A stretch of 64,000 nt of DNA, taken from the IMG/VR virus record IMGVR_UViG_3300045988_123588; one strand, 5' to 3'. Below are positions 11,868 through 44,823 of the stretch, piece by piece. A program made the position numbers and the translations under genes. Every line of letters begins with the position of its first letter. Position 1 is the first letter of the stretch. The notes under the pieces are model-generated. The model did no database searches. It saw nothing but the letters and a program-made list of their open reading frames with translations, and was not told the origin of the DNA. Origin of the DNA: a virus.

Positions 11868-13958
11868 ATGGCTTTTACAAGTGGTAGTCCTTCTGCAGGA
11901 CAACTCGAGATAGGTGTGGCTCTTGTCCTTCAAGATAGGTTTTCAAACCAAGCAAGGGAAGCTAGCTCAGTTATCAGAGGTTTACATAGGGATGCTAAAA
12001 ATGCCGTACAGGCTAACTTAACTGCAGTTCAGTCGTACGCTAACATGGCAAGTGGGGTGGCCAACTCGATAGTATCGACATTAACCACTACCATTCAAAC
12101 TGGAGCTGACTTCATCGATATGATGACTTCAGTAGGAGCTATCTCTGGAGCTACCGAAAATCAGATGTATGGGTTATCTGAAACTGCTCAGACATTAGGT
12201 TTAAGGACCATGTTCATGTCGAGGGATATAGCTTCAGGTATGAAATATTTGGCAATGGCCGGTAATGATGCAAATCAGATTCAGCAAATGATATCTGGTG
12301 CTGCTATGATGGCCAATGCCACAGGCATGGAATTGGGAGGTAAAGGTGGTACTGCTGACTTACTGACCAATATTATGAGGACCTTCAAACTTGAGGGTCA
12401 ACAGGCTGCAAATATTGTTGGTGACCAGCTTACTAAAGCTACCATGTCATCCAACGTATCAATGGCCGACTTAGCTGAGTCTATCAAATACTCAGCTGCA
12501 TCCATGGTAACTCTGAAACAACAGTTACCACAAGTAGCTGCTATGATTGGTACTCTGGGTAATGCAGGTATTCAGGGTTCTATGGCAGGTACTTCTATCC
12601 GAAACATGGCTGACTACCTGACTCAGTCATTGACCAATCCTAATTTCAAGGGAGCTAAGGCCTTAGCTAAGTTAGGACTGGGAAAACAGGATTTTGTAGA
12701 TGCTAACGGAGACCTTCAGGATTTTGCAGTAATTCTGGAGAAGATTGGTGAAGCTACTCAAGGTTTATCAACTATAGACCAGAATGCCGTATTCAAGAGT
12801 ATCTTCGGTGTACGTGGTATGCGTGCTGCAGTTGCAATCATGCGTGATACTGAAGGTTACTTTGACCTGTTAAATAAGATACAAAACAATTCTGCGGGAT
12901 TTGCTGAAGAGGTAGTAGGAAAGCGAATGGAAACTCTTGCCGGTAAGATTGATATAGTTCAGTCTGCTGCTGAGAACCTTATGACTACTTTCAGTGAAGC
13001 CCTCGGTAAGAATCCTATTATAATGGGATTCCTCGATATGGTTGGTTGGGCAATATCCCAGCTTCGTGACCTAATGGCAACTCCATTTGGTCCATGGATA
13101 GCTGGATTTGCTGCTATAGCCGCAGTGGGGTTAAAAATAGGCTCTATATGGATGGGGCTGAGAGCACGTTGGTTATTATTAAACGGTGACTCTCAAGTTT
13201 CATTCAGAACCATGATAAGGTTAATGATGGGCGGATGGTCTCAGGCCACTATGTCTGCTCAAGGTTACTTAAACATGGAGAGAGCTATCATTGCTCAGAG
13301 AAAAGCCGGTATAGGGGCAAGTGCTTCTACGGTTGCTGGTATGGCTGGGTTACCTGGTTATTTCTATAACGGTAATGTTGCAGCAAAGATGGGAGCTAAT
13401 GGCAGATACTATGCTCAAACCGGTAGAGGAGCTTCTGGATGGACTCCAGTGCCAGCTGCAATGGTAACTACTACCAATGCTGGTAATATGACTCGAGGTT
13501 TAATGGGTACTGCTGCTGGAGCAGCCGCCGGAGCTGCATCTCGTGGAGCCTTGGCTTCTGTAGGTAGAGGTATATTGGGATTCGGTTCCCGATTACTCGG
13601 ATTATTCGGAGGTCCACTTGGATTAGCCATTACTGGTATATCCATATTCGGACCCATGATATACAGTGCTATCAAGGGTAATAAATCCTCTCAAGACGAA
13701 AACACAAGAGCTACTAATGACTTAGCATCTGCCATCAAAGCTAGCCGAGAAGGTTATAAACAGAAAGATAATCTACAAGCATTAACTCTCCAAGAGATAA
13801 GGTGGTTGGTACAGATGTTAGGAGTATATACTGATAAGCTTAATAATCAGGGTAATAGAGGAACTCACTTGACTATCAATATGGATGGTAAGAAGTTCCT
13901 GGAAGAGTACCTTGGTGAAAGAGATTCAGAGATAAACGTAGCTGCTGGAGTAAACTAA
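11868..13958 (+). CDS. Tail tape measure protein
   Basis: 696 aa. The core resembles the TP901/PhageMin_Tail type (MFMSRDIASGMKYLAMAGNDANQIQQMISGAAMMANATGMELGG). There are Gly/Ala-rich TM-like segments near the C terminus, and the gene lies after the chaperone. Confidence 0.85.
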   Translation: MAFTSGSPSAGQLEIGVALVLQDRFSNQAREASSVIRGLHRDAKNAVQANLTAVQSYANMASGVANSIVSTLTTTIQTGADFIDMMTSVGAISGATENQMYGLSETAQTLGLRTMFMSRDIASGMKYLAMAGNDANQIQQMISGAAMMANATGMELGGKGGTADLLTNIMRTFKLEGQQAANIVGDQLTKATMSSNVSMADLAESIKYSAASMVTLKQQLPQVAAMIGTLGNAGIQGSMAGTSIRNMADYLTQSLTNPNFKGAKALAKLGLGKQDFVDANGDLQDFAVILEKIGEATQGLSTIDQNAVFKSIFGVRGMRAAVAIMRDTEGYFDLLNKIQNNSAGFAEEVVGKRMETLAGKIDIVQSAAENLMTTFSEALGKNPIIMGFLDMVGWAISQLRDLMATPFGPWIAGFAAIAAVGLKIGSIWMGLRARWLLLNGDSQVSFRTMIRLMMGGWSQATMSAQGYLNMERAIIAQRKAGIGASASTVAGMAGLPGYFYNGNVAAKMGANGRYYAQTGRGASGWTPVPAAMVTTTNAGNMTRGLMGTAAGAAAGAASRGALASVGRGILGFGSRLLGLFGGPLGLAITGISIFGPMIYSAIKGNKSSQDENTRATNDLASAIKASREGYKQKDNLQALTLQEIRWLVQMLGVYTDKLNNQGNRGTHLTINMDGKKFLEEYLGERDSEINVAAGVN

Positions 13959-13964
13959 TAAATC

Positions 13965-14954
13965 ATGGCATCACTCATAGGAAAACCATTAGGAAAAGTA
14001 GCTCAAGAAGTAGCTGACCTTGAGCAGGGGAGAATATTCCAATCCCCTCTAAATAAAGTATGGAGAGCCCTGATACTCATAAACAGGGCTACTTCTCCAA
14101 TGGCTAAGGCAGAGCCTCATAAAATTGGTAAAGCCTATGACGCAAAGAATCTACATGTAGCCCGAAAAGGCTCATTCTCTTTAGCCCAGGCTCAGGACCC
14201 ATGGACTCAAAATCGTATAGCTGCTGAAACAGCTGGAGTTTCTCCTGAACAGATTCTTAAGGCTAAGTCTATAGATTATACTGTAGCTAACAAGTTGACT
14301 TCTGAACTGATAAAGAATGACATTGTTATCGCTAACCTGAATGTATCACCAGCTGTAAGTTTAGTGATTCAAAACAGGCCTGACAGATTACGAGTAGAAC
14401 CTACTGCTACTTGGGCTTCAGTTAAATCCATGGGACGTAATAACCCCTTTTATTTCTACACTGGAGGAGAAGATACAATAACCTTCGACATCTCTTGGTA
14501 TTCAATAGATGCTGAACACAGAGATGATGTGGTGAATAAATGTAGACTGCTTGAGTCTTGGGCAAGAGCTGATGGTTATTCTGCATCACCACCTACCCTA
14601 AGAATTCAGTGGGGTAACTCTGGATTATTCGAAGACGACCTTTTCATACTGGCTTCAGCTCCATACGAATTAACTCATTTCCAAAATGCAGCTCGTATGA
14701 GGAGAAGGTATGATAATGACCCAGATACTGGTCAGAGGATTGTAAGTACTGTAAGTCAACCATTTGACCTTAAGCTACTACCCAACTGTGCAACCCAAAC
14801 ACTCACCTTCAAAAGGGTAACTAAAAACAACCGAACTTGGGAAGAAATAATCCCTGCTAGTAAGTTGCAGTATACGCCTGGAGTAATATATGATGGTGGG
14901 GAAGTAAATTCTCTAGAAAACTCTGATACAGAGAGAATAGGCACACAAAATTAA
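13965..14954 (+). CDS. Post-tape-measure tail protein (tube-initiator / CIS-tube-like candidate)
   Basis: 329 aa. NNPFYFYTGGEDTITFDISW...PPTLRIQWGNSGLFEDDLFIL resembles the tube-fold proteins that precede LysM and hub genes in contractile systems. Confidence 0.4.
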   Translation: MASLIGKPLGKVAQEVADLEQGRIFQSPLNKVWRALILINRATSPMAKAEPHKIGKAYDAKNLHVARKGSFSLAQAQDPWTQNRIAAETAGVSPEQILKAKSIDYTVANKLTSELIKNDIVIANLNVSPAVSLVIQNRPDRLRVEPTATWASVKSMGRNNPFYFYTGGEDTITFDISWYSIDAEHRDDVVNKCRLLESWARADGYSASPPTLRIQWGNSGLFEDDLFILASAPYELTHFQNAARMRRRYDNDPDTGQRIVSTVSQPFDLKLLPNCATQTLTFKRVTKNNRTWEEIIPASKLQYTPGVIYDGGEVNSLENSDTERIGTQN

Positions 14955-31399: not shown

Positions 31400-31801
31400 A
31401 TGGCAAAGAAAAAGAAAGACAAGTTAAAAGAAGTAAGGAAGGAGTTAGAGACTGGAGATATTTTTGAGCCCATGGATATCACCAAACTTGGTTCAGGTAA
31501 CGACCCTTGTTTCGGTAAGAATTACGACTTATCGACCAAGGAATGTAAGATGTGCGGGGATTCTGAACTCTGTTGCATTAAGTTCACAGCTCTCATGGGT
31601 AAGACTCGTAAAGAGTTAGAAGCAGAAACTAAATTCAAGGATTTGGAACCTTTGGTAGATATAGAGGGTTGTAAAAAGTACTACCGCAAACTGGTAAGGG
31701 AGAAACTCGGTAAGAAGGAAATACTCGATAAGCTTCAGAGTAAGTTCGAGTTATCAAGAAAGGAAGCAAGAGACATTTATCGTAAATTCAACAGTAAATA
31801 A
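31400..31801 (+). CDS. Lys-rich Cys-cluster protein
   Basis: 133 aa with the N terminus MAKKKKDKLKE. The Cys cluster is CFGKNYDLSTKECKMCGDSELCC. Confidence 0.5.
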   Translation: MAKKKKDKLKEVRKELETGDIFEPMDITKLGSGNDPCFGKNYDLSTKECKMCGDSELCCIKFTALMGKTRKELEAETKFKDLEPLVDIEGCKKYYRKLVREKLGKKEILDKLQSKFELSRKEARDIYRKFNSK

Positions 31802-31802
31802 C

Positions 31803-32378
31803 ATGGTACAATTAGAGTTCACAAAGATTAGAGATGTTAAATCTCCAAACCGAGCTAATGAGGGAGATGCAGGTTTGGATTTTTACATACCTAAATTAAC
31901 TATTGATGACATCTTAAAGGTAGGTGAGAAACATGAGAAAGATTTCACCGGTATCAATAGAAAGATGTTTGGTTGTGGTAACATAAAATTCAAAGGCATA
32001 GATACTAATGGGTTATGTATAGCCCTTAATCCAGGAGGACGAATACTTATACCCTCTGGAATAAAGGTTCTTATCAATCCCAGGGAATCCATGCTCATGG
32101 CAGCAAACAAATCGGGAGTTGCTACTAAAGATGGATTAACATTTACAGCCGAGATAGTTGACAGTCCGTACACGGGAGAGATGCACATCGGGATTCAAAA
32201 CGCTTCTACTGAACCAGTATATATACCCCTCAGAGAAGATAAGAAGATAATGCAATTCATACATGTTCCTATCATACTCTCAACACCGGTAGAGATTACC
32301 AACGAGGAGTATGAAGAGAAAGCAAAAAACTGGGGAACAAGAGGAGATAAGGGATTTGGTGCACACGATAATAAGTAA
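31803..32378 (+). CDS. dut: Trimeric dUTPase
   Basis: All five motifs are present: GDAGLDFY, ANKSGVA, EIVDSPYTGEMH, KIMQFI and RGDKGFGAHD. Confidence 0.85.
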   Translation: MVQLEFTKIRDVKSPNRANEGDAGLDFYIPKLTIDDILKVGEKHEKDFTGINRKMFGCGNIKFKGIDTNGLCIALNPGGRILIPSGIKVLINPRESMLMAANKSGVATKDGLTFTAEIVDSPYTGEMHIGIQNASTEPVYIPLREDKKIMQFIHVPIILSTPVEITNEEYEEKAKNWGTRGDKGFGAHDNK

Positions 32379-32382
32379 GACA

Positions 32383-33288
32383 ATGGATAGTCGCGATATA
32401 AAGGAAGAACCGAAAAATATAGAGGGTAATAGATATCTTGAGGAGATATACTTTATGCAAAAGAACCTCCTATCTGGTTATATCGGTATAGAGGGGCTCC
32501 CACAGTATCCTATAGATATCAATACAAAAGCTTCTCAAACTTTACTCAAGGACTTCACTGCACGTGTAATAGAGGAGTTATCTGAGGGGTACGAATCTTT
32601 TCAGGCAGTGGATAGTATCATGCAGAACAGTCACTACAAGATTATATCTGGTGATGACCTGATATACATTGAACTACTTAATAACCTTCAAAATGCCAAT
32701 GAGGAAAATGCAGATGCAGTACACTTCTTTGTTGAGTTGCTGATATATGCTAACATTCAGCCTGATGATATCATGGCATACATGGAGAAGTGGGTAAAGG
32801 ATAACAAATGCGAACAGAGTACAGTAGATTACTTTAACTCTATACGTAATGATATCCTGTATACTGCTCAATCTATGGGAGTGAAGTGGTTGATGGATGA
32901 GAGAGATATAGAAGTAATCTTTGATAGTAACTCAACAAACCTGTTGAAGTGGTACGAAGAGAAAGACTCCGAAACTTTCCCTGAGTACAATGAGAAACTG
33001 TTGAAAGGCGGTTATAAGTATAATCACGAAAACTATGCTCTTCAATATCCGTATATACTATGGAAGATAACTCACCATTTGAACATAGCTCGTAATTTCC
33101 TGAAGAATAAACCATGGAAGCAATCTCAGGTGATGACTCAGGAGTTAAAGTATCAGGCTGAGTTGGTGAAAGCTTTCATATACTTCTGTGGTTACCTCGG
33201 ATGGATAGGTATGGATTCTAAGGAAGTGTTCTATATATACTTCAAAAAGAACCATATCAATATGTTCCGTCAAAAATCTAAGTATTAG
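32383..33288 (+). CDS. All-alpha (dimeric dUTPase / MazG-like) dNTP pyrophosphatase
   Basis: I moved the start to ATG 32383. The motifs are IEELSEGYE, EENADAVHFFVELLIYANI, NKPWKQSQV and the C-terminal YFKKNHINMFRQKSKY, which together fit the dUTPase_2-type pattern. Confidence 0.6.
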   Translation: MDSRDIKEEPKNIEGNRYLEEIYFMQKNLLSGYIGIEGLPQYPIDINTKASQTLLKDFTARVIEELSEGYESFQAVDSIMQNSHYKIISGDDLIYIELLNNLQNANEENADAVHFFVELLIYANIQPDDIMAYMEKWVKDNKCEQSTVDYFNSIRNDILYTAQSMGVKWLMDERDIEVIFDSNSTNLLKWYEEKDSETFPEYNEKLLKGGYKYNHENYALQYPYILWKITHHLNIARNFLKNKPWKQSQVMTQELKYQAELVKAFIYFCGYLGWIGMDSKEVFYIYFKKNHINMFRQKSKY

Positions 33289-33289
33289 T

Positions 33290-34282
33290 ATGAACATAGT
33301 TAGGGCAAAGAATCCTATTAAGGCCTGGGAATATTTAGTAGAGGGATTCCTACTGAAAAAACCCGAATGGTTTGGAGAAGGAGTTGGTTACAATATAACC
33401 AACTCTCTTTTCACGTACGATATGTGCATAGAGATAGAAGAAGCCAAGTTTAATCCCAAGTTTGACTTTGGTAAGTTGTTCTGTTATACCATGACTAAGT
33501 GGACTGGTTTAATAACCAACTACTTCGATTTAGATGTGCTTGATGAAGCTAAGATTATGATAAGAAAGTTGGAAGAAAATAAGGTAGTGAATAGAAACTA
33601 CCATATAGGCTTTCACTTTGCAGACAATCATAATAGTGGAAAGGGATGTCTGGTGGGTGGAATATTCTCTCGTAAAATAGGTGTAGAAAAACCAGAGATA
33701 ACTATCATTCTACGTTCATCAGATGTAGTAACCAGATTGCCTATGGATATGCTGTTATTCTGTAGACTCGGTGAATATGTATACGGACATACTGATTTCA
33801 AACTGGTACTGATTCTGAAAGCAGCTTTTGCAGATGATACAGCTATACTTATGTACAACAATCATAAGGAAATAAAGAAGGTAATGAAAGGCTGTGAAGA
33901 TGTAGAACGTAAGAGAAAGATACGCAAATCATTCAAGAGGTTGATGACCAGTGATGAGAAGGTATATAAGACTTATGGTCACAGTTTCAGAGCTTTCAAA
34001 GCTTTGAGGAAAGATCTCTCTTATAAACGTAAGTCAATGACTGCAGGTGAATTAGAGATTGGTAACTGGGATGGTATTCCTCTTCCATATCCATGTTCTT
34101 CAATACTCAAACGAAATGAGATAAAGAAGACCTACTTAAAGTTCACTAGTAAGTATGGGCTTAAATTAAAGCTGGAAAGTGAAGGTAATGAAGGCAAAAG
34201 AAAGAAGCTACTATCATTCGGAGCATCAGAAGGAGAGCCAGAAGAAGTTGGATATCAAATACCAGGACAAGAAGATGAGTAA
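33290..34282 (+). CDS. Divergent thymidylate-synthase-fold protein, paralogue 1
   Basis: TS-type motifs occur in order: YTMTKW, NRNYHIGFHF, GKGCLVG (Cys), ILRSSDVVTRLPMD and DDTAILMYNNH. The protein carries a ~90-aa basic/acidic C-terminal extension. Confidence 0.55.
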   Translation: MNIVRAKNPIKAWEYLVEGFLLKKPEWFGEGVGYNITNSLFTYDMCIEIEEAKFNPKFDFGKLFCYTMTKWTGLITNYFDLDVLDEAKIMIRKLEENKVVNRNYHIGFHFADNHNSGKGCLVGGIFSRKIGVEKPEITIILRSSDVVTRLPMDMLLFCRLGEYVYGHTDFKLVLILKAAFADDTAILMYNNHKEIKKVMKGCEDVERKRKIRKSFKRLMTSDEKVYKTYGHSFRAFKALRKDLSYKRKSMTAGELEIGNWDGIPLPYPCSSILKRNEIKKTYLKFTSKYGLKLKLESEGNEGKRKKLLSFGASEGEPEEVGYQIPGQEDE

Positions 34283-35063
34283 GCTTAAAATAAAGGGTAA
34301 CCTGTTGCAGTTCAAAACCAGCATGAAAGCTTGGGAAGGACTTAACAGGTTATTTCTGTTCAATACCCTTGGTTTGGACATAGAAAGAATTGGTAAAGCT
34401 CAATATATAAATGATTTAGTCATTAGTATTAATGAGCCTCTAGTAGACCCAGAATTTGATTTTGGTAGGCACTTCAACTACACCATGTCAAAATGGAAGT
34501 CATTAGTAGCTAATTACATTGATGAGAATAGTTTGATTGACTTAAGACAGGAAGTCAACACAGCTATGAACTCAAGGAAGATATTCAATATAGGTTATCA
34601 GTTTAATAATAAACATGCTCATGGGAAGAACTGCCTATTATCTATGACAGTGTCTAAAAAGGCTGGTATGGATAAACCCATGATAACCGTGTTCATGAGG
34701 GCATCAGAAGTTACTAAAAGATTAATATGTGATTTACTCCTCATTCAACGTATGGGAGAGTATATATTTTGCAATGGTCAGAAGTTTCAAGTATCAATAC
34801 ATTTCAGTCAGATATTTAATGATGATACTGTATTACTAATGTACCATGCTCATGAAGATTTACTAAAGCTAAGTGATAAACTTGGTATATACGACGGGAA
34901 TTGGTATGAGCGATTAGAATACCTACTAAAAGTAGACCCTGACAAGATAAAGTATAAGGTACATAAAAGAGCTTTGAAAGTACTAAGGCCAGAATTATTC
35001 AAGTACCCAAAAACTCTGGCAAAAGATTGTACACTTGGTAATGAAGACTGGCTACCATTCTAA
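34275..35063 (+). CDS. Divergent thymidylate-synthase-fold protein, paralogue 2
   Basis: I set the start to ATG 34275, giving an ATGAGTAA overlap with the previous stop. It is collinear with paralogue 1: YTMSKW, SRKIFNIGYQF, GKNCLLS, FMRASEVTKRLICD and NDDTVLLMYHAH. Confidence 0.55.
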   Translation: MSKLKIKGNLLQFKTSMKAWEGLNRLFLFNTLGLDIERIGKAQYINDLVISINEPLVDPEFDFGRHFNYTMSKWKSLVANYIDENSLIDLRQEVNTAMNSRKIFNIGYQFNNKHAHGKNCLLSMTVSKKAGMDKPMITVFMRASEVTKRLICDLLLIQRMGEYIFCNGQKFQVSIHFSQIFNDDTVLLMYHAHEDLLKLSDKLGIYDGNWYERLEYLLKVDPDKIKYKVHKRALKVLRPELFKYPKTLAKDCTLGNEDWLPF

Positions 35064-35099
35064 GATAGGGAAGTCTATTGAATTGCAAATACCAATGCA

Positions 35100-35279
35100 A
35101 TGAAAATAGAAGTAAAGAAATCTCCTTATACCAGTAAACTCGGAGGAGATATAGATATAACTTTCTCCACTGATGATGGATGGTTATTTAATACCGTGGC
35201 CAACATAAGTGTAAAAGATTTAAGGCAGCTTAAAAGAAAGGTAAGGAGGTATCTAAGTGAAGTACGAGAGGAAAGGTAA
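35100..35279 (+). CDS. Unlisted 59-aa ORF, paralogue of 35257..35457
   Basis: MKIEVKKSPYTSKLGGDIDITFSTDDGWLFNTVANISVKDLRQLKRKVRRYLSEVREER*. Its C-terminal KDLrqLkrKvRrYl matches QDLKELRKSIRKYI of the next ORF. Confidence 0.45.
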   Translation: MKIEVKKSPYTSKLGGDIDITFSTDDGWLFNTVANISVKDLRQLKRKVRRYLSEVREER

Positions 35280-35457
35280 ACCATATTTTGGAGTGGAGAT
35301 ATCCAAGGGTAAATATCCCGATAGGAATAGCAGGGATATAGAGTTATCTATATGTATCAATGCTCATCATTGGGTAGGTCTTCCCAATATGAATATTCAG
35401 GACCTAAAAGAACTACGAAAATCTATAAGAAAATATATTAAAAATAACGAACAATGA
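35257..35457 (+). CDS. Small protein, paralogue of 35100..35279
   Basis: 66 aa with a GTG start preceded by aggagg. It overlaps the previous ORF by 23 nt. Confidence 0.45.
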   Translation: MKYERKGKPYFGVEISKGKYPDRNSRDIELSICINAHHWVGLPNMNIQDLKELRKSIRKYIKNNEQ

Positions 35458-36224
35458 GAATATATTCGAACCCTTACGAGTTAATGTCAGAAACTGCTCG
35501 TAATCTTTGGGAGATGGGTAATGAGGTAAAACCACGTACCTATCAGAATAAAGTTATCGAAGGCAAAGATGACTTTATTACAAAGGAACTTATATGTGAG
35601 CAGTACTGTTTAACTCACATGGAAGACCCAGCTGCACTTTTCGTATTTACCAAGTCCAAGGACTGGGCAGATGCAGAACTAGAAGAGAGAGTAAGCGGTA
35701 GAATGGAAAATCCTGGCAAAGCTTGGGAACTTCGTAAGAATATTTGGGAAGAGTTTTTGGTCGATGGATTTTTTGACTATACCTATGCAGAACGTATGAA
35801 CGAGACAGTTTCATACAAAGGTAAAGCATTCTCTAAACTCGAGGCAGTGATAGAACTGTTAAAAACAGATAACGATACAAGAAAAGCCATATTAAATATA
35901 TATGGTGAGGACGGTTTCAATGAAGATTGCGACTCAAACTACCTTGGGGGTGAACATAGAATACCATGTTCAATGTACTACGACTTCCTCATACGGGAAA
36001 ATGCCCGAGGAGAGAAGCAGTTAAATATTTGTTATCACCAAAGGTCATCAGACTTTGTAACCCACTTCGGGAATGATGTATACCTGGCATGGAGACTCAT
36101 GGAATACGTAGCTAGAGAAGTGGGCATCAAACCTGGTTATCTCTATCATACTATTGATAGTTTGCATAGTTATAAAAAGGACTGGGTAAAGCTTAAAACT
36201 TCTATCCAGACCGAATTAAGGTAA
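35454..36224 (+). CDS. Thymidylate-synthase-family dNMP methylase/hydroxymethylase; substrate not assignable by eye
   Basis: The motifs are FDYTYAERM, DTRKAILNIYG (TS SRRIIVSAWN), RIPCSMYYDF (TS PPCH), CYHQRSSDFVTHFGND (TS YQRSxDxxLGxPFN) and IDSLHSY (TS GDxHxY). Confidence 0.75.
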   Translation: MRIYSNPYELMSETARNLWEMGNEVKPRTYQNKVIEGKDDFITKELICEQYCLTHMEDPAALFVFTKSKDWADAELEERVSGRMENPGKAWELRKNIWEEFLVDGFFDYTYAERMNETVSYKGKAFSKLEAVIELLKTDNDTRKAILNIYGEDGFNEDCDSNYLGGEHRIPCSMYYDFLIRENARGEKQLNICYHQRSSDFVTHFGNDVYLAWRLMEYVAREVGIKPGYLYHTIDSLHSYKKDWVKLKTSIQTELR

Positions 36225-36302
36225 CAAAAGAGGGTAACGGTGGTTGAACTTAGTTTCTTTTCTGTCAAGCCGAGATTAGTAGTAAAACCGTTACCTTCTT
36301 TC

Positions 36303-36376
<74 letters not shown>

Positions 36377-36465
36377 CTTATGAATCTTTACTTTGCGCTG
36401 TGGACAACGAGTCCTGATTCATTCCCAGGTACTGGACGGTAGTGATATAGACTGGTACCTAATTT

Positions 36466-36540
36466 ACGGAAGTAGCACAGTCCGGTCAGTGTACTTGCTT
36501 TGGGAGCAAGGGGTCGCAGGTTCGAATCCTGTCTTCCGTA
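36466..36540 (+). tRNA. tRNA-Pro (UGG)
   Basis: The cloverleaf is acggaag/cttccgt acceptor, gcac/gtgt D stem, cttgc-ttTGGga-gcaag anticodon arm and gcagg-ttcgaat-cctgt T arm. Confidence 0.85.
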
Positions 36541-36651
36541 CAAGGGCTATATGCTGGGTCATAACAGGAGATACGACCTCCAGCTAGCAATGGGCAATAA
36601 CCTGGTACGAGATACCAAAACCCATAATTAAAGTCGAAGGCTATAGCTTTA

Positions 36652-36690
36652 GGAGATGAGCGAAGAACAGTACCTCATCTCCCCTTTTGT
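36652..36690 (+). terminator. Hairpin plus T tract between tRNA-Pro and tRNA-Leu
   Basis: ggagatgag (36652-36660) pairs with ctcatctcc (36674-36682) around a 13-nt loop, followed by ccttttgt. It ends 5 nt before tRNA-Leu. Confidence 0.65.
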
Positions 36691-36694
36691 AAAG

Positions 36695-36780
36695 GCTCGG
36701 ATGGTGAAATAGGTAGACACGCCGGACTTAAAATCCTGTGACCAGCAATGGTCGTGCGGGTTCGATTCCCGCTCCGAGTA
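36695..36780 (+). tRNA. tRNA-Leu (UAA), type II with a long variable arm
   Basis: The sequence begins gctcggatggtgaaataggtagacac, as E. coli Leu tRNAs do. The anticodon loop is ctTAAaa, the variable arm is gtgaccagcaatggtcgt, and the T arm is gcggg-ttcgatt-cccgc. Confidence 0.85.
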
Positions 36781-36795
36781 CAAAATACCCTGAAC

Positions 36796-37131
36796 ATGAC
36801 AATCACATTCAAAGATTATCCTTGCGGTACAATTTCATTAGGTACTTCAGTAACAAGAATACCTAACTCATATCGGATTAAATCTATCCGAGATATGGAA
36901 TATATAATCAACCGTTCTAGAGAAGAAGTAAATAAAAGTCCAGCATTCCATACGTTTGCAATAAATAAAAGAACTACAGCTGGTATGATTATTGAATGGC
37001 GAGCCCATAATATGCTATATGCACTGCATATAAAAAGGAATCGGACTCGAACGGTTGACCTGGATATAAATGAACCATGGTACCGTAAAGTAGGATATGT
37101 AATATTATCAACACTATACTTAAGATGGTAG
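36796..37131 (+). CDS. Hypothetical protein
   Basis: I moved the start to ATG 36796 because the track ORF start at 36748 lies inside tRNA-Leu. 111 aa. Confidence 0.45.
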   Translation: MTITFKDYPCGTISLGTSVTRIPNSYRIKSIRDMEYIINRSREEVNKSPAFHTFAINKRTTAGMIIEWRAHNMLYALHIKRNRTRTVDLDINEPWYRKVGYVILSTLYLRW

Positions 37132-37733
37132 AAATCACAAACGTAGACGTTTATGACTTAGAGAAGTCAATTATAGCATGTAGGAATGCTATGCGTACAG
37201 AACCTGTATTTCCAATAGGCGTAGATGCTTGGGGACATCCAATTTACGAACAGAAGGAGTGGGATGATTCTTTCAAGAGGGCAAAATCACTTGCCAAATC
37301 TCCCTCAAACAGTGGTCACCCTAATTTTCTAACCGGTATAAGGGTATCATTTGATATTCTGTACCCAAACTACTTTTCACCCGAGTTACAACGATATCAT
37401 TGGATAGACATTGTAACCTCATCTTCAAAGATGCACCGACTTGGTGAAATTGTAAAGAAGGAATCTTTTAACAAGTATGTAACTCCAGAGGTCATAGCTA
37501 TAGTTCAGGACTTGGCCAATAAGTTCATTGAGGACCCCAGCTATGAGAATCGCATCAAGCTGTTAAGTAACTGCCCTCTCGGAATAGAGTTATTCATGAG
37601 GGTAAGTACAAACTATATGCAACTACGGAATATATACTACCAGAGGAAAGACCATCGCTTGAGAGAGGATTGGGGGTCATTTTGTAAGATGATTCAGGAA
37701 TTACCATTCTTTGATGAATTTATCAATCAGTAG
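37125..37733 (+). CDS. ThyX-fold protein with degenerate catalytic motifs
   Basis: It is collinear with ThyX. SGHPNFLTGIRVSFDILYPNYFSPELQRYHWIDIVTSSSKMHRL aligns with HGHETPFEH..F.F.V.aPifvarQwfRHRiaSyNElSgRY. STNYMQLRNIYYQRKDHR aligns with TvNaRsLmnFlnLRadshA. Confidence 0.55.
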   Translation: MVEITNVDVYDLEKSIIACRNAMRTEPVFPIGVDAWGHPIYEQKEWDDSFKRAKSLAKSPSNSGHPNFLTGIRVSFDILYPNYFSPELQRYHWIDIVTSSSKMHRLGEIVKKESFNKYVTPEVIAIVQDLANKFIEDPSYENRIKLLSNCPLGIELFMRVSTNYMQLRNIYYQRKDHRLREDWGSFCKMIQELPFFDEFINQ

Positions 37734-37735
37734 TT

Positions 37736-37981
37736 ATGGCCGATAGATATGAACATGTAAATCACCCAAAACACTACAATAATTATAGTGTGGAAGTGAT
37801 AGATATGATGGAAGCAATTTATGGAACGGAAGCAACAATAACCTTCTGTGAAATGACAGCTTTCAAATATCGCATGAGGGTTGGTACTAAACCAGATAAC
37901 TCAATAGAACAGGATTTACAAAAGGAACGTTGGTATCTTAACAAGGCTAAAGAATTAAGGGCTAAAATTAAGGTAGAATAA
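37736..37981 (+). CDS. DUF3310-family small protein
   Basis: HPKHYNNYSVEVIDMME...FCEMTAFKYRMRVGTKP...EQDLQKERWYLNKAKEL fits the DUF3310 pattern. Confidence 0.65.
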   Translation: MADRYEHVNHPKHYNNYSVEVIDMMEAIYGTEATITFCEMTAFKYRMRVGTKPDNSIEQDLQKERWYLNKAKELRAKIKVE

Positions 37982-38110: not shown

Positions 38111-40399
38111 ATGGAGTCAAGATATGCTATAATAAAGAGTTTCTCACAAGTCAAGCGGCTTGTGAAAGCCTGTTTGAAAACAGGTATAGCTTCCGTCGAC
38201 TTCGAGACAAACGCAGAGGGTATTTATAATAAAACCTTCAAACCAACCATCTTATCCATAACCTTTCAAGTTGGTTCTGGTGTATCAATTCCACTATGTC
38301 ATCATGAATATAAAAACCCTCGTTGGAAACGTTGGTTAAAGTATTTTGGTAGGAAAGTGGTTGAGAATCCTAATATAACTAAAGTAGGATGGAATCTGAA
38401 GTTTGACCTTCAGATATTTGAGTTGTTTGGAATATATGTTAGGGGTACAGTTCTAGACGGTATGCTTATGAAGTACCTTCTGAACGAAGAGAAACCTAAT
38501 GACTTGAAGTCCATGGTTAGAAGGTATCTACCAGAACATGGGGATTACGAGAAGTCAGATAAATTCGACAAGATACCATGGGATAAGAAACCTTTAGAAC
38601 CATTATGCAAGTATGGTTGTCAGGATACCGATTACACTCTTAGGTTAGCTATGTTCTTTGAAAGCAAGCTGATAGAGGTTGGTATGTATCCATTATTCAG
38701 GCATTTGATTATGCCTGCTTCACGGGTATTGCAACATGCCGAGAAAACAGGATTATATCTCGATAGGAAGTTCAATCAGGAATTACTTGAATCTTATAAA
38801 CCAAAGATTGACCAAGCAACTTCTAATTGCTTGAATCTTCCTCGAGTGAAAAAATTCTCTAGATGGCTTGTCCAAGAAAGAATAAGCAAATATCTTGCAT
38901 CTATTGAAAGTGAACTTGAGGATTTAGATTACAATGATCCGAAGGATGCCCGTAAAATAGCAAGCAGGGAACAAAAAATATCTAACATCCGAGCAGGTGT
39001 ATTCACTACTAAAAAGGAATTGGAATTAACCCGAGAAGTAAACTTAGGGAGTCCTATTGACTTACCTTTGTTATTATATTCTAAAAAGGGATTTAACTTT
39101 CCGATAATAAAATACACAAAGGATAAGAAAACAAATCGTGATACTGATAAGCCAAGTACTGATGAGGATACGTTGGTAGAACTTAGGTTAACGGTTAAAG
39201 ACCCAGAAAGTCCAAAGGCAATATTCCTGGATAACCTTCTTGAGTTGAGAGGGTTAAAGAAAATGTATACAACATATATAGAGGGGTGGCATGATAAGGT
39301 ACAGGATGATGATAGGATTCATGGTCAATTCAAAATCATTGGTACTACATCAGGACGACTGAGTAGTTCTGAACCCAATCTACAGCAGATACCAAAGACT
39401 TCAGTAGATGCTAATATTAAGAAACAGTTAGTAGCTCCAAAGGGGAAACTATACATGGCACTAGACTACTCTCAGGCAGAGTTAAGAATCATGGCACACC
39501 TTTCAGGAGATGAGACTTATCTTGAGGCATTTGCCAAGGGTCAGGACCCTCACCTTGCTATTGCAGCAAACAAATATGGGGTATCATACGAGGAAGCAAA
39601 CAAAGCTTATAGCGATGAACAACATCCCGATTATAAGCTTTGGAAAAATCGAAGGAAGCAGGCAAAGCAGATATGTTTCGGTATTATATATGGTATTCAG
39701 AAGAAACTGCTTGCAGTTAAACTATCTGACCCAAAAGCTGGTATTATCGTAACTCCAGATGAAGCTCAACAACAGCTGAACGAGTTTTTCCAAGAGCACC
39801 CAAAGATTAAGAAGTTCATGATTAACCAAGAGAAAGTATTGGTAAGACATGGATATATTAAATCTCTGTTTGGTAGGAAAAGAAGATTACCTCAAGTATA
39901 TTCTGATAATGAGCAAGAAGCTGCATACGCAGTACGATTATCAGTTAATATGCCATGTCAATCAGCTGCATCCGATATGACTTTGTTTGCATCTATACTT
40001 AATTACTGGAAGATTAGGCAGGGCATATTACCACCTCTATTGGAAACATGTACTGTACATGATGCTGTTTATTACCTGACAGACCCAGAATATATAAACA
40101 TATTCACAGTGTATAATATATGGGAAACATGCCGTAACCCGAGTACAAAAGAATATTTCAAGTTTGAAATCAATGATGTCGATATGTCTATGGACTTTAC
40201 TATAGGACGTTCGATGGCTGAGGAGTTACCGTATATACCGGGATATGACTATAGAAAAATGCTTCAACCAGATTTCAATGTGGAGAAGTATTTGGAAGAA
40301 CATCGGAAATGGAAAGAGCTATCCATTAAAGAGTTCCCAAAGAAGTTTCCGGAATACTTTAAGAAGGATTACTCATGGCGAAAGGAAAAGGTGGCATAG
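38111..40399 (+). CDS. Family A DNA polymerase with 3'-5' exonuclease domain
   Basis: The Exo motifs are ASVDFETNA (I), GWNLKFDLQIF (II) and YGCQDTDYTLRL (III). The Pol motifs are LDYSQAELRIMAHLSGD (A), RRKQAKQICFGIIYG (B) and CTVHDAV (C). Confidence 0.95.
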   Translation: MESRYAIIKSFSQVKRLVKACLKTGIASVDFETNAEGIYNKTFKPTILSITFQVGSGVSIPLCHHEYKNPRWKRWLKYFGRKVVENPNITKVGWNLKFDLQIFELFGIYVRGTVLDGMLMKYLLNEEKPNDLKSMVRRYLPEHGDYEKSDKFDKIPWDKKPLEPLCKYGCQDTDYTLRLAMFFESKLIEVGMYPLFRHLIMPASRVLQHAEKTGLYLDRKFNQELLESYKPKIDQATSNCLNLPRVKKFSRWLVQERISKYLASIESELEDLDYNDPKDARKIASREQKISNIRAGVFTTKKELELTREVNLGSPIDLPLLLYSKKGFNFPIIKYTKDKKTNRDTDKPSTDEDTLVELRLTVKDPESPKAIFLDNLLELRGLKKMYTTYIEGWHDKVQDDDRIHGQFKIIGTTSGRLSSSEPNLQQIPKTSVDANIKKQLVAPKGKLYMALDYSQAELRIMAHLSGDETYLEAFAKGQDPHLAIAANKYGVSYEEANKAYSDEQHPDYKLWKNRRKQAKQICFGIIYGIQKKLLAVKLSDPKAGIIVTPDEAQQQLNEFFQEHPKIKKFMINQEKVLVRHGYIKSLFGRKRRLPQVYSDNEQEAAYAVRLSVNMPCQSAASDMTLFASILNYWKIRQGILPPLLETCTVHDAVYYLTDPEYINIFTVYNIWETCRNPSTKEYFKFEINDVDMSMDFTIGRSMAEELPYIPGYDYRKMLQPDFNVEKYLEEHRKWKELSIKEFPKKFPEYFKKDYSWRKEKVA

Positions 40400-43264: not shown

Positions 43265-44174
43265 AAAACCGAGGATGCTTATGGTAGTGGACGGGAGTAA
43301 TCTTGCTCACCGTTCATACCATAAGTTTAAGAATCTAAAAGCCAACAACGGAGTTGGTACAGGGTTGGTATATGGATTCTTAAGAATCTTAGGTTCATAC
43401 CTAACAAGGTTTAAGCCCAGTCATGTAGTAATTACTTTCGATACTCAACAGAGCAAAGAGTCAAATTTCCGTAATGGTCTACTCGAAGGTTACAAAGCAC
43501 ATAGGAGTAAGATAAGTATGGATTATGAAGACTTCAATAAACAATTATCATTGTTGAGAAGGATTCTAAGATTACTCGGAGTTCAGATGATTATTGATAG
43601 GAAGGGCCTGGGATATGAATCTGATGACTACATTGCTTGGTTGGCAATAAACCACCCAGGTAAATCTCTGATAATATCCTCTGATAAAGACTTCTGTCAA
43701 TTGCTTGATAAAAGAGTCAAGATATTCAATCCTAACAAAGATACCATAATCCTAAACCAAACCTGCAAGGATATCATGGGTTACTCTGCTGAGGAATGCG
43801 TTGACTACCTAATACTTAATGGAGATAAGTCAGATGATATCCCAGGTTATTACGGTATGGGAGAAGTGAAGACAAAAGCTTTCTTAAAACAGTATGGGAG
43901 TATATCAGACTTCATAGATGCAGTCGGAGCAGAGTTCAAGGGTATTGAAAGGGACCAGCTAGAAGAGTTATACAAGAAGAACAAGCCTCTGATAGACTTG
44001 AGAACAGCATTAACTCTGCACCCAATCAAGAAAGTCCCTTGGGTAAAAGGATGTACTAATAATAAAAGGAAGGATAGGTTATTCATGGTATTAGACAAGT
44101 TTAACCTTAGGTCTTTCAAGATACCCGATTTTTTGGAACCTTTCAAAAAACTACAACATTATGTACAACGGTAG
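43227..44174 (+). CDS. 5'-3' exonuclease / flap endonuclease (T4 RNase H-like)
   Basis: The motifs are MLMVVDGSNLAHRSYH, GYESDDYIAW, IISSDKDFCQLL and LNGDKSDDIPGYYGMGEVKTKAFL. The start is uncertain; ATG 43254 or 43275 would remove the overlap with the recombinase. Confidence 0.9.
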   Translation: MQKKKNISRMRGRKPRMLMVVDGSNLAHRSYHKFKNLKANNGVGTGLVYGFLRILGSYLTRFKPSHVVITFDTQQSKESNFRNGLLEGYKAHRSKISMDYEDFNKQLSLLRRILRLLGVQMIIDRKGLGYESDDYIAWLAINHPGKSLIISSDKDFCQLLDKRVKIFNPNKDTIILNQTCKDIMGYSAEECVDYLILNGDKSDDIPGYYGMGEVKTKAFLKQYGSISDFIDAVGAEFKGIERDQLEELYKKNKPLIDLRTALTLHPIKKVPWVKGCTNNKRKDRLFMVLDKFNLRSFKIPDFLEPFKKLQHYVQR

Positions 44175-44823
44175 GAAATACCAAATCATGTTCACCGGAG
44201 TTTCGGGAGTTGGAAAAACAACTATTGCCAAGGAAGTGGCAGATATGTTAAAGATACCTTTCATATCTGGGTCATATTCTGACTTGGTACCTGAAACTAA
44301 AAACATGCCACATGCTGATATGATTCAGCAGGATGCCGAAACGGTATTCACACAGGATATGCAGGTACTTAATCTGCGTAACAAAGCTTTCAGGGGAGAA
44401 GATAGCTTTGTAACAGACAGGTCATACTTTGACTCAGCAGCATACTTTATCAATAAGCTATCACATAGGTTAGCTGAATGCGATTTAGAACATGCTGTAG
44501 ACTTATGTCGTATGTTACTTGGTCAACAATGTACTCATTTAATCTTCATACCTTTCTCAGCAAGATTTTTCAATGAGTGGGTAACAGAAGATAACGGTAA
44601 ACGAGTACTATCAAAGTACTACCAATTCCAGGTATCACAGGTAATGTACGGACTACTTGACCTGTGGGGTTTCAAACTAGATTCAAATATATTCCAGTAT
44701 GTAAATGGTATTCCCAATACTGGTACATTGGATATCATGGGTTACAAGATTAAAGTCATGATATTGGATGAGATGAACTACGAAAAAAGGAAAAACCTTA
44801 TCAACAAATTTCTTCAGTTATGA
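44161..44823 (+). CDS. P-loop deoxynucleoside/deoxynucleotide kinase-like protein
   Basis: The P-loop is MFTGVSGVGKTTIAKEVA and VTDRSYFDSAAYF is a dNK-like DRS motif. Confidence 0.55.
   Translation: MYNGRKYQIMFTGVSGVGKTTIAKEVADMLKIPFISGSYSDLVPETKNMPHADMIQQDAETVFTQDMQVLNLRNKAFRGEDSFVTDRSYFDSAAYFINKLSHRLAECDLEHAVDLCRMLLGQQCTHLIFIPFSARFFNEWVTEDNGKRVLSKYYQFQVSQVMYGLLDLWGFKLDSNIFQYVNGIPNTGTLDIMGYKIKVMILDEMNYEKRKNLINKFLQL

Follow-up and report, generated by a model that had tools for sequence, protein, structure and literature searches.

The IMG/VR virus record IMGVR_UViG_3300045988_123588 was analyzed as a single stretch of 64,000 nucleotides (hereafter the window), of which positions 31803 to 37981 had been singled out from the letters alone as a pyrimidine-nucleotide remodelling island that predicts a non-canonical base in the phage DNA. 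The conserved core of this region (31803-36224) encodes two nucleotide pyrophosphatases followed by three consecutive proteins with the thymidylate synthase (TS) fold, here called TS1 (33290..34282), TS2 (34275..35063), and TS3 (35454..36224). Together with a downstream family A DNA polymerase (PolA) and a P-loop kinase, the core is a candidate pre-replicative deoxycytidylate-modification module, a reading whose chances are judged to be about even. Open reading frames (ORFs) and tRNAs of the region were taken from the plus strand of the window, and tRNAs were located with ARAGORN. Proteins were compared with Pfam (curated cut-offs) and PHROG families, folds were tested by searching AlphaFold models against the PDB and viral models with Foldseek, and 84 related loci were drawn from IMG/VR, ENA, Logan, and GenBank for a comparison of gene content. 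The ORFs listed in the original prediction are all present on the plus strand where it placed them, and the set is indeed interrupted by only two tiny ORFs (paralogous to each other, E 9e-8), three tRNAs, and one ORF of 111 aa.

The first gene of the core encodes a trimeric-type dUTPase of 191 aa with an insertion (31803..32378; PF00692 1.5e-8, 35 bits versus a cut-off of 22; phrog_135 3.6e-18). The five motifs attributed to it are represented by the stretches AGLDF, NKSG, EIVDSPYTG, KIMQ, and RGDKGFG in canonical order, with motifs 2-4 being divergent and matched with relaxed patterns only. The second gene (32383..33288) encodes, as had been proposed, an all-alpha nucleoside triphosphate pyrophosphatase of the dUTPase_2/MazG superfamily (PF08761 28.3 bits versus a cut-off of 22.9; phrog_12184, a pyrophosphohydrolase family, 1.3e-19). 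Its orthologue in cultured phages is the dUTPase_2 or PRA-PH gene found at the same place in the cassette, and the protein is a candidate dCTPase/dUTPase; by analogy, its substrates would be dCTP and dUTP.

TS3 belongs to a distinct cytosine-type clade of TS homologues and matches Thymidylat_synt (PF00303) at 4e-17 (62.7 bits versus a cut-off of 24.3). Its residues were placed on the E. coli ThyA numbering by two routes, namely HMMER alignments to solved TS structures and alignment by MAFFT with E. coli ThyA, whose landmark residues all fall at their published numbers. TS3 keeps the equivalents of Trp80, Tyr94, Cys146, Arg166, Ser167, and Asp169, and differs from E. coli ThyA in carrying Asp in place of N177, Ser in place of H147, and Arg in place of L143. 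The RIPC and HQRSSD motifs and the Arg at position 143 are invariant in 24 TS3 homologues. The closest solved sequence relatives of TS3 are the HY126 deoxycytidine monophosphate (dCMP) hydroxylase AfhB (4.4e-9) and the CMP hydroxymethylase MilA (1.4e-5), both ahead of true TS. An Asp at TS position 177 switches the enzyme to dCMP, and positions 177 and 147 gave the top differential-conservation scores between modified- and unmodified-cytosine metavirome contigs in the MetaGPA study (PMC8670742). Because an Asp occupies the Asn177 equivalent in all three TS-fold proteins, cytosine rather than thymine is indicated as the target. We infer that TS3 is specific for cytosine and that the phage DNA contains a non-canonical base, which is probably a modified cytosine specifically.

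The kind of modification is addressed by published product rules, according to which an acidic residue at position 143 marks a hydroxymethylase and D169N marks a 5-hydroxy-dCMP synthase (PMC13326640). TS3 carries the cytosine-type Asp177 and fits neither rule: position 143 is an Arg and not acidic as in the T4-type 5-hydroxymethyl-dCMP synthases, and the retained Asp169 rules out a 5-hydroxy-dCMP synthase. Nor does TS3 conform to the 5-methyl-dCMP synthases of the Xp12/PaMx74 type, as it is only 20% identical to PaMx74 ThyA and no deaminase was found in the window. After the H207 equivalent, TS3 has 18 residues, versus 57 in E. coli ThyA and 63 in the PaMx74 enzyme. The C-terminus of TS closes the active site for hydride transfer. 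The lack of a long C-terminus in TS3 therefore leans towards a non-reduced product (e.g., hydroxymethyl), and a hydroxymethyl-type or otherwise non-reduced product is favored over a plain methyl group. An ordinary dUMP-methylating ThyA was also considered for TS3 and is ruled out by Asp177, Ser147, the truncated tail, and the canonical ThyA or ThyX genes that accompany the TS3-type gene and its TS1/2-like partner in relatives.

TS1 is extended at its C-terminus by a basic region and ends in an acidic tail, and TS2 is its shorter paralogue (33% identity, E 7e-43). Neither has a Pfam match, and TS2 matches phrog_34294, a family of unknown function, at 8.9e-10. Sequence routes from TS1/TS2 to TS (Pfam, the family profile against PDB sequences, in which no TS was found, and hhalign) gave nothing significant, and the fold was settled by structure prediction alone. 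With the AlphaFold model of TS1 (predicted local distance difference test score (pLDDT) 82.9; predicted template modelling score (pTM) 0.81), the top 50 Foldseek matches in the PDB are all TS-family proteins (probability 1.0, E ~3e-5, template modelling (TM) scores 0.3-0.54), including AfhB and MilA. Against viral models, uncharacterized homologues come first, followed by annotated TS and dCMP hydroxymethylases, and nearly all of the significant matches are TS-family. TS2 is assigned the TS fold by its paralogy to TS1. The proposed run of three TS-fold proteins is thus upheld by a different route for each member (TS3 by Pfam, TS1 by structure, TS2 by paralogy), and a placement of the TS-like proteins in unrelated folds, which the original prediction had named as grounds for its rejection, was not what the structural searches returned.

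An exhaustive profile search for the TS1/2 family yielded 174 cluster representatives. Among 107 full-length diverse members, some only 15-20% identical to TS1/TS2, Tyr78, Cys120, Arg142, and Asp153 are invariant, and Glu/Asp145, Lys70, and Trp71 are near-invariant. The segment R142-S-S-D145...D153 of TS1 aligns without gaps to R197-S-S-D200...D208 of TS3, which places the Cys, Arg, Asp/Glu, and Asp of TS1/TS2 at TS positions 146, 166, 169, and 177. The D169 equivalent is Glu in 100 of the 107 members and Asp in 3, and the D169N exchange of the 5-hydroxy-dCMP synthases is found in neither TS1 nor TS2. The family hidden Markov model (HMM) also weakly matches the same segment of gp46, the TS of Mycobacterium phage Muddy. 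The N-terminal ~85 residues of TS3 are absent from TS1/TS2 (TS1 starts at approximately residue 83 of TS3), and the C-terminal region is basic, with a Lys/Arg-rich helical region (residues 205-250) and a near-invariant Arg234. Distant members of the family are closer to TS2 than to TS1 and the homologues in cultured phages are single-copy; TS2 is, on these sequence comparisons, the ancestral form. No informative extra domain was found in ten longer homologues checked for Rosetta-stone fusions, ten distant homologues had no Pfam match, the alignment of diverse members offered no conserved stretch that could be used to locate distant members in IMG/VR, and three single-protein scans of IMG/VR for them found nothing. 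Two GenBank records name homologues of TS1/TS2 'pyrimidine hmase synthase', labels suggesting that some annotators noticed the fold relationship.

The order dUTPase_2, TS1, TS2, TS3, PolA is found in all of the 84 relatives, and the trimeric dUTPase, located 5' of dUTPase_2, is absent from two loci only (L006 and L007). PolA (38111..40399; phrog_17 6.6e-108), which forms the downstream boundary of the cassette, lies downstream of the TS genes in every lineage examined. The 111-aa ORF, a ThyX-like gene, and a DUF3310 gene that make up the remainder of the ~6-kb set occur together in ~11 of the 84 relatives. The proposed island therefore stands for the dUTPase, dUTPase_2, TS1, TS2, and TS3, whereas the ThyX-like block is accessory, and the whole 6 kb cannot be regarded as one co-inherited unit. 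Also conserved in the relatives is the kinase-like gene at 44161..44823, whose product is a P-loop protein resembling nucleoside monophosphate kinases (AAA_28 4e-6; Cytidylate_kin2 9e-5; phrog_2107 'thymidylate kinase' 2.8e-8) and a candidate kinase for a (modified) deoxynucleoside monophosphate (dNMP). Its earlier description as dNK-like was accurate as to the P-loop and overstated as to the family, since PF01712 (dNK) scores 13.4 bits versus a cut-off of 27 (E 0.068) and only generic P-loop kinase families pass.

The genes of the window run from capsid, sheath, tape measure, and baseplate to DnaB, primase, helicase, PolA, SSB, a UvsX-like recombinase, an exonuclease, and SbcCD, followed by ORFs with no family match. 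The candidate family 'Flandersviridae' comprises contractile-tailed human gut phages of Bacteroides/Parabacteroides of ~75-85 kb with a structural block followed by DnaB, DnaG, and PolA, and with IspD and LicD genes in some members (Benler 2021, PMC8008677). The window fits this type of gut phage, with major capsid protein, sheath, tape measure, and baseplate genes preceding DnaB, primase, and PolA, and with contigs of ~74-83 kb among its relatives, one of which (L050) contains IspD and LicD genes matching the insertion described for the family. No link between phages of the Flandersviridae type and DNA modification was found in the literature, and a duplicated TS1/2 system in this abundant human gut phage family appears to be undescribed in the searchable literature. 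Gene identities are uneven across the cassette in some relatives (L008-L065 compared with 31803-36224): in L008, TS1 and TS3 are 99-100% identical to those of the window and the dUTPase_2 between dUTPase and TS1 is just 74% identical, while in L027 the identities are 95% for dUTPase_2 and 74% for TS1. Such patterns indicate frequent recombination inside a mosaic module. In Bacteroides phage BF486P2 (L089 2892-6405), two separate Asp177-type TS homologues flank a dut gene, both are annotated as deoxycytidylate 5-hydroxymethyltransferase, and both have Asp at the L143 equivalent; Bacteroides phages may often have more than one cytosine-type TS gene.

Homologues of the cassette are also present in cultured phages. 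Searches with tblastn and the family HMM located a TS1/2-like 'hypothetical protein' directly upstream of a TS gene in six unrelated lineages, represented by Mycobacterium phage Muddy, Gordonia phage Emalyn, Serratia phage Serbin, Pseudomonas phage PMBT14, Microbacterium phage Huwbert, and Clostridium perfringens phage A2 (hmmsearch E 4e-11 to 2e-58; hhalign 97% for Muddy gp47). The TS genes of these lineages belong to the TS3 clade, with R-x-P-C, [ND]-D at 176/177, Thr/Ser at 147, and a short tail. The cultured cassettes contain a thymidylate-kinase-like P-loop protein, an all-alpha pyrophosphatase (dUTPase_2 or PRA-PH), the TS1/2-like protein, the Asp-type TS, usually a Zn dCMP deaminase, and PolA. 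Of the records in the phage collection, 114 contain the TS clade and 115 (85 + 17 + 13) the TS1/2-like family, with the same host distribution, and the pairing of a TS1/2-like protein with an Asp-type TS is shown by this co-occurrence to be obligatory. The TS set had been described as unlike any of the textbook sets; no published signature indeed fits, although the set is not unique, given that the pair is found in ~115 cultured phage records. Neither the family nor its strict pairing with the Asp177/Arg143 short-tail TS clade seems to have been described in the searchable literature. In Huwbert (L095 3384-5029), two adjacent genes annotated as 'thymidylate synthase' are of different kinds: gp67 has Asp177 and the short tail, whereas gp68, with Leu143, His147, and Asn177, is a canonical ThyA. 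The presence of canonical ThyA (Huwbert) or ThyX (the L070 lineage) next to the pair indicates that the pair is not a redundant dTMP synthase.

That the family strictly accompanies a single TS clade, one to one, bears on whether TS1 and TS2 are enzymes at all. They could instead be regulatory or scaffold subunits or TS-derived nucleic-acid binders (e.g., translational regulators or replisome adaptors), in which case TS3 would by itself make 5-methyl-dCMP (as in Xp12) or 5-hydroxymethyl-dCMP (as in T4). This would agree with the missing N-terminal segment, the Lys/Arg-rich helical region and acidic tail, the absence of a Pfam TS match, and the full replacement by 5-methylcytosine in PaMx74, which has no such protein. 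It is considered improbable, however, because it is difficult to see why Cys, Arg, and Asp would stay invariant at 15-20% identity unless they served catalysis or bound a nucleotide specifically, and because the co-occurrence suggests a functional dependency. Under a catalytic reading, the TS1/2-like family would be an obligatory partner of the Asp177/Arg143 short-tail TS, either as a heterodimer or in a second step acting on the TS3 product or an exocyclic-methylene intermediate, and the result would be an undescribed cytosine derivative. This proposal is tentative and is itself thought unlikely.

The use of TS homologues in pre-replicative pyrimidine modification is a well-known principle, and a route through the deoxycytidylate-modification module can be outlined on this basis. 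With the aid of the trimeric dUTPase, the all-alpha pyrophosphatase would convert dCTP and dUTP to their monophosphates by analogy with T4 gp56, thereby removing the canonical triphosphate and feeding dCMP into the pathway. The conserved Cys of TS3 would attack C6 of dCMP, and a one-carbon unit would be transferred to C5. More speculatively, TS1 and TS2 might work on the cytosine nucleotide that TS3 uses or on the next one, either in a heteromeric complex with TS3 or as an enzyme of a second step. The kinase would then phosphorylate the product, and PolA would incorporate it. In a recent survey, co-localized genes for a TS, a PRA-PH-type pyrophosphatase, a deaminase, and PolA were found in 70% of modified-cytosine contigs versus 6% of unmodified contigs (bioRxiv 10.1101/2024.12.05.627091). 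Among such TS genes Asp177 predominates, and of seven enzymes tested five made 5-methyl-dCMP, although the tested enzymes may not belong to the TS3 clade (PMC8670742; bioRxiv 10.1101/2024.12.05.627091).

Comparison with known systems places the window near several of them without an exact counterpart. The T4 pathway (gp56 dCTPase/dUTPase, gp42 dCMP hydroxymethylase, and gp1 dNMP kinase) is likewise pre-replicative and combines an all-alpha pyrophosphatase, a TS homologue with the catalytic Cys and Asp177, and a kinase, and the short C-terminus of TS3 resembles those of the cytosine hydroxymethylase and hydroxylase branches. However, T4-like enzymes have Asp or Glu at the L143 equivalent (the criterion of PMC13326640) where TS3 has its invariant Arg, the window has two extra obligatory TS-fold proteins, and a glucosyltransferase was not found in the window. 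The 5-methylcytosine type of Xp12 and PaMx74 shares with the window the order pyrophosphatase, Asp177 TS, (deaminase), close to PolA, as well as the association with modified-cytosine contigs; PaMx74 is named as a phage that fully replaces cytosine with 5-methylcytosine (NEB preprint, bioRxiv 10.1101/2024.12.05.627091). The window differs from this type in having neither a deaminase nor DHFR, while PaMx74 has no TS1/2-like gene and its ThyA, 32% identical to E. coli ThyA, has the long C-terminal tail noted above (63 versus 18 residues). The 5-hydroxy-dCMP synthases (RB69 gp48, DLP3 gp80, and HY126 AfhB) are flavin-dependent TS homologues and include the best solved relative of TS3, AfhB, with Asp177 in both, yet their diagnostic D169N is absent from TS3, which reads QRSSD, and from TS1/TS2, where the position holds Asp or Glu. 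The 'thymine synthesis' operon of CT-cluster Gordonia phages, Muddy (gp44-49), PMBT14 (gp45-50), and Serbin is the homologous cassette, with an all-alpha pyrophosphatase, a TS1/2-like protein, an Asp177/Arg143 short-tail TS, and PolA. These cultured cassettes contain a single TS1/2-like gene, accompanied by a neighboring thymidylate-kinase-like gene and a Zn dCMP deaminase, whereas in the window the TS1/2-like gene is tandemly duplicated (TS1 and TS2), a trimeric dUTPase is added, a deaminase is lacking, and the kinase is different, with no detectable BLAST similarity between the 44161-44823 protein and the cassette kinase of the cultured phages.

Several observations weigh against a modified cytosine in the phage DNA. 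In palindrome counts made as an indirect check for protective modification, GATC is nearly absent from the window (9 observed versus ~237 expected from a Markov model), and CTAG (62 versus 144), TTTAAA (2 versus 33), ATGCAT (1 versus 13), CATATG, and GAATTC are depleted as well, while CCGG, GGCC, GCGC, TCGA, and AGCT are not. Avoidance of GATC and of hexamers, some of them containing cytosine, suggests that the DNA may still be open to restriction rather than broadly protected. Among the scanned ORFs of the window, neither a glycosyltransferase nor any other enzyme modifying bases at the DNA level was found. The relative MT121964 (L096 4682-5677), which is 78% identical and has the same TS cassette, encodes a C5 DNA cytosine methyltransferase (PF00145 6e-18), which argues against complete C5 substitution because such an enzyme would be pointless if every cytosine were C5-substituted. 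No homologue of this methyltransferase occurs in the 64-kb window; by synteny it would fall upstream of the window start. TS3 lies outside all three published product signatures (5-hydroxycytosine, T4-type 5-hydroxymethylcytosine, and PaMx74-type 5-methylcytosine). On the structural side, the TM-scores of the TS1 model to solved TS structures are modest, and hhalign of the TS1/TS2 family with the TS3 family gave 13% probability over 42 columns around the RSSD motif, which is not significant. Finally, the cassette of Gordonia phage Azira has been described as serving thymine synthesis (PMC10353413), and no account of DNA chemistry or of odd DNA was found in the searched papers on phages with the cassette, among them PMBT14, the Clostridium phages, and the heavily used Muddy, an absence of evidence only.

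Some of these observations would be expected if the cassette were a thymidylate or dNTP supply operon for an AT-rich phage with ordinary virion DNA, operating either from dCMP through 5-methyl-dCMP to dTMP or by the dUMP route, with any modified intermediate being consumed. The methyltransferase of MT121964, the lack of DNA-level modifying genes among the scanned ORFs, and the published view of the Azira cassette all suit this explanation, as do the G+C content of the window (39.3%), the thymidylate-kinase-like gene and Zn dCMP deaminase of the cultured cassettes, and the finding that phage deaminases encoded beside Asp177 TS genes yield dTTP from 5-methyl-dCTP (bioRxiv 10.1101/2024.12.05.627091). 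However, the window has neither the Zn deaminase nor an orthologue of the cassette kinase, and TS3 lacks ~40 C-terminal residues of the methyl-forming ThyA and PaMx74 enzymes. The coexistence of canonical ThyA or ThyX with the pair in Huwbert and L070 also means that the pair is not simply a thymidylate synthase, and phages with such a gene context were recovered in the modified-cytosine fraction (NEB study). A supply operon is accordingly regarded as a serious possibility, if a doubtful one.

The same deaminases raise the question of a thymine analogue as the final product, whereby a 5-substituted dCMP made by TS3 would be deaminated to 5-hydroxymethyl-dUMP or a similar nucleotide that replaces thymine. 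Deaminases of homologous cassettes can act on 5-hydroxymethyl- and 5-methylcytosine nucleotides (bioRxiv 10.1101/2024.12.05.627091), and the Flandersviridae join the Ackermannviridae in the TerL phylogeny (PMC8008677), the latter being listed with makers of hydroxymethylated pyrimidine nucleotides (PMC13326640). The window contains no deaminase, however, matches of the 5-hmdU DNA kinase-like or aGPT-Pplase-like kind were not reported among its scanned ORFs, and the ThyX or ThyX-like plus DUF3310 units of the phage family point to normal use of dTMP, making a thymine analogue very improbable indeed. For the modified pyrimidine originally predicted, the fold assignments, the cytosine-type TS3, and the resemblance of the gene set to known pre-replicative replacement pathways (pyrophosphatase, TS homologue, and kinase) speak in favor, whereas the missing DNA-level enzyme, the methyltransferase of MT121964, and the thymine-synthesis reading in Gordonia phages speak against, and the prediction is thus retained in part.

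The 'Flandersviridae' are reportedly found in the human gut with about the frequency of crAss-like phages (PMC8008677), and a modified cytosine in their DNA, if true, would affect sequencing bias, evasion of restriction and CRISPR, host prediction, and isolation attempts. Should the cassette produce an undescribed derivative, an unrecognized DNA base would be carried by over 100 phages in culture, among them the therapeutic phage Muddy, and by the abundant gut 'Flandersviridae'. The TS1/2-like proteins constitute an overlooked TS-fold family, annotated as 'hypothetical' in ~115 cultured phage records, whose partner TS clade falls outside the published methyl, hydroxymethyl, and hydroxy rules, and the routine 'thymine synthesis' label for the cassette genes may be overturned. 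Since many carriers of the cassette are in culture (Muddy, PMBT14, Serbin, the CT-cluster Gordonia phages, and Clostridium perfringens phages), the product is readily testable.

The region between TS3 and PolA is a variable hotspot. In some relatives only a short gap separates the two genes, in others IspD and LicD genes are inserted, and in the window three tRNA genes, for tRNA-Met (CAT; 36303-36377), tRNA-Pro (TGG; 36466-36541), and tRNA-Leu (TAA; 36695-36781), are located between TS3 and the 111-aa ORF (36796..37131). This ORF has no family match and co-occurs with the ThyX-like gene (37125..37733), whose product is a ThyX-fold protein of the uncharacterized family phrog_6721. The degenerate catalytic motifs noted earlier for this protein are real, in that the RHR motif is replaced and reads RYH...SSSK, and the fold itself is supported by structure: with the AlphaFold model (pLDDT 92.2), all of the top 50 Foldseek matches in the PDB are ThyX (TM 0.5-0.63). 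Unlike canonical ThyX, the protein fails to match Thy1 (PF02511) at a threshold as lax as E 1; no ThyX was retrieved from the PDB by phmmer or by profile searches, and hhalign to canonical ThyX was not significant. The family has 2401 homologues, with cultured-phage matches in Clostridium, Clostridioides, Fusobacterium, and Desulfovibrio phages, and elsewhere it occurs in phages with no TS gene nearby. The DUF3310 protein that follows (37736..37981) was correctly named (PF11753 2.5e-13) and matches phrog_236 (1.9e-18), for which PHROG gives 'nucleotide kinase'. In the L070 lineage, a canonical ThyX (Thy1 2e-47) is likewise followed by DUF3310, and the two genes are inserted between TS1 and TS2. 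The recurrence of ThyX or ThyX-like genes with DUF3310 in different relatives therefore marks an exchangeable two-gene unit outside the conserved module, and the accessory unit of 111-aa ORF, ThyX-like gene, and DUF3310 most likely supplies thymidylate.

Two small paralogous ORFs of 59 aa (35100..35279) and 66 aa (35257..35457) lie in the gap between TS2 and TS3, are present in only part of the relatives, and share a basic C-terminal helix (..DLRQLKRKVRRYL / ..DLKELRKSIRKYI); in L006 and L007, a 59-aa ORF fills the same gap. Directly 5' of the dUTPase is a conserved Cys-rich ORF of 133 aa (31400..31801) with no Pfam or PHROG match, whose Cys-rich segment is CFGKNYDLSTKECKMCGDSELC and which recurs at this place in almost every relative examined, with identities of 55-99%. 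In L050, the IspD-family cytidylyltransferase and LicD-family phosphotransferase (12967-14587) adjoin TS3 within the hotspot. The LicD enzyme has been suggested to modify teichoic acids (Benler 2021, PMC8008677); next to a cytosine-type TS, a possibility suggested by analogy is that the two enzymes decorate a hydroxymethylated base in the manner of a CDP-alcohol donor and a phospho-alcohol transferase. PolA is also variable in length, with ~1080-1092 aa in some relatives (L050 14708-17986; L070 14890-18132) compared with 762 aa. The large insertion in the L050 and L070 proteins, which extends from a Cys after 'LIHG' up to 'TTSGRLSS' and includes an HNH-like stretch, looks like an intein.

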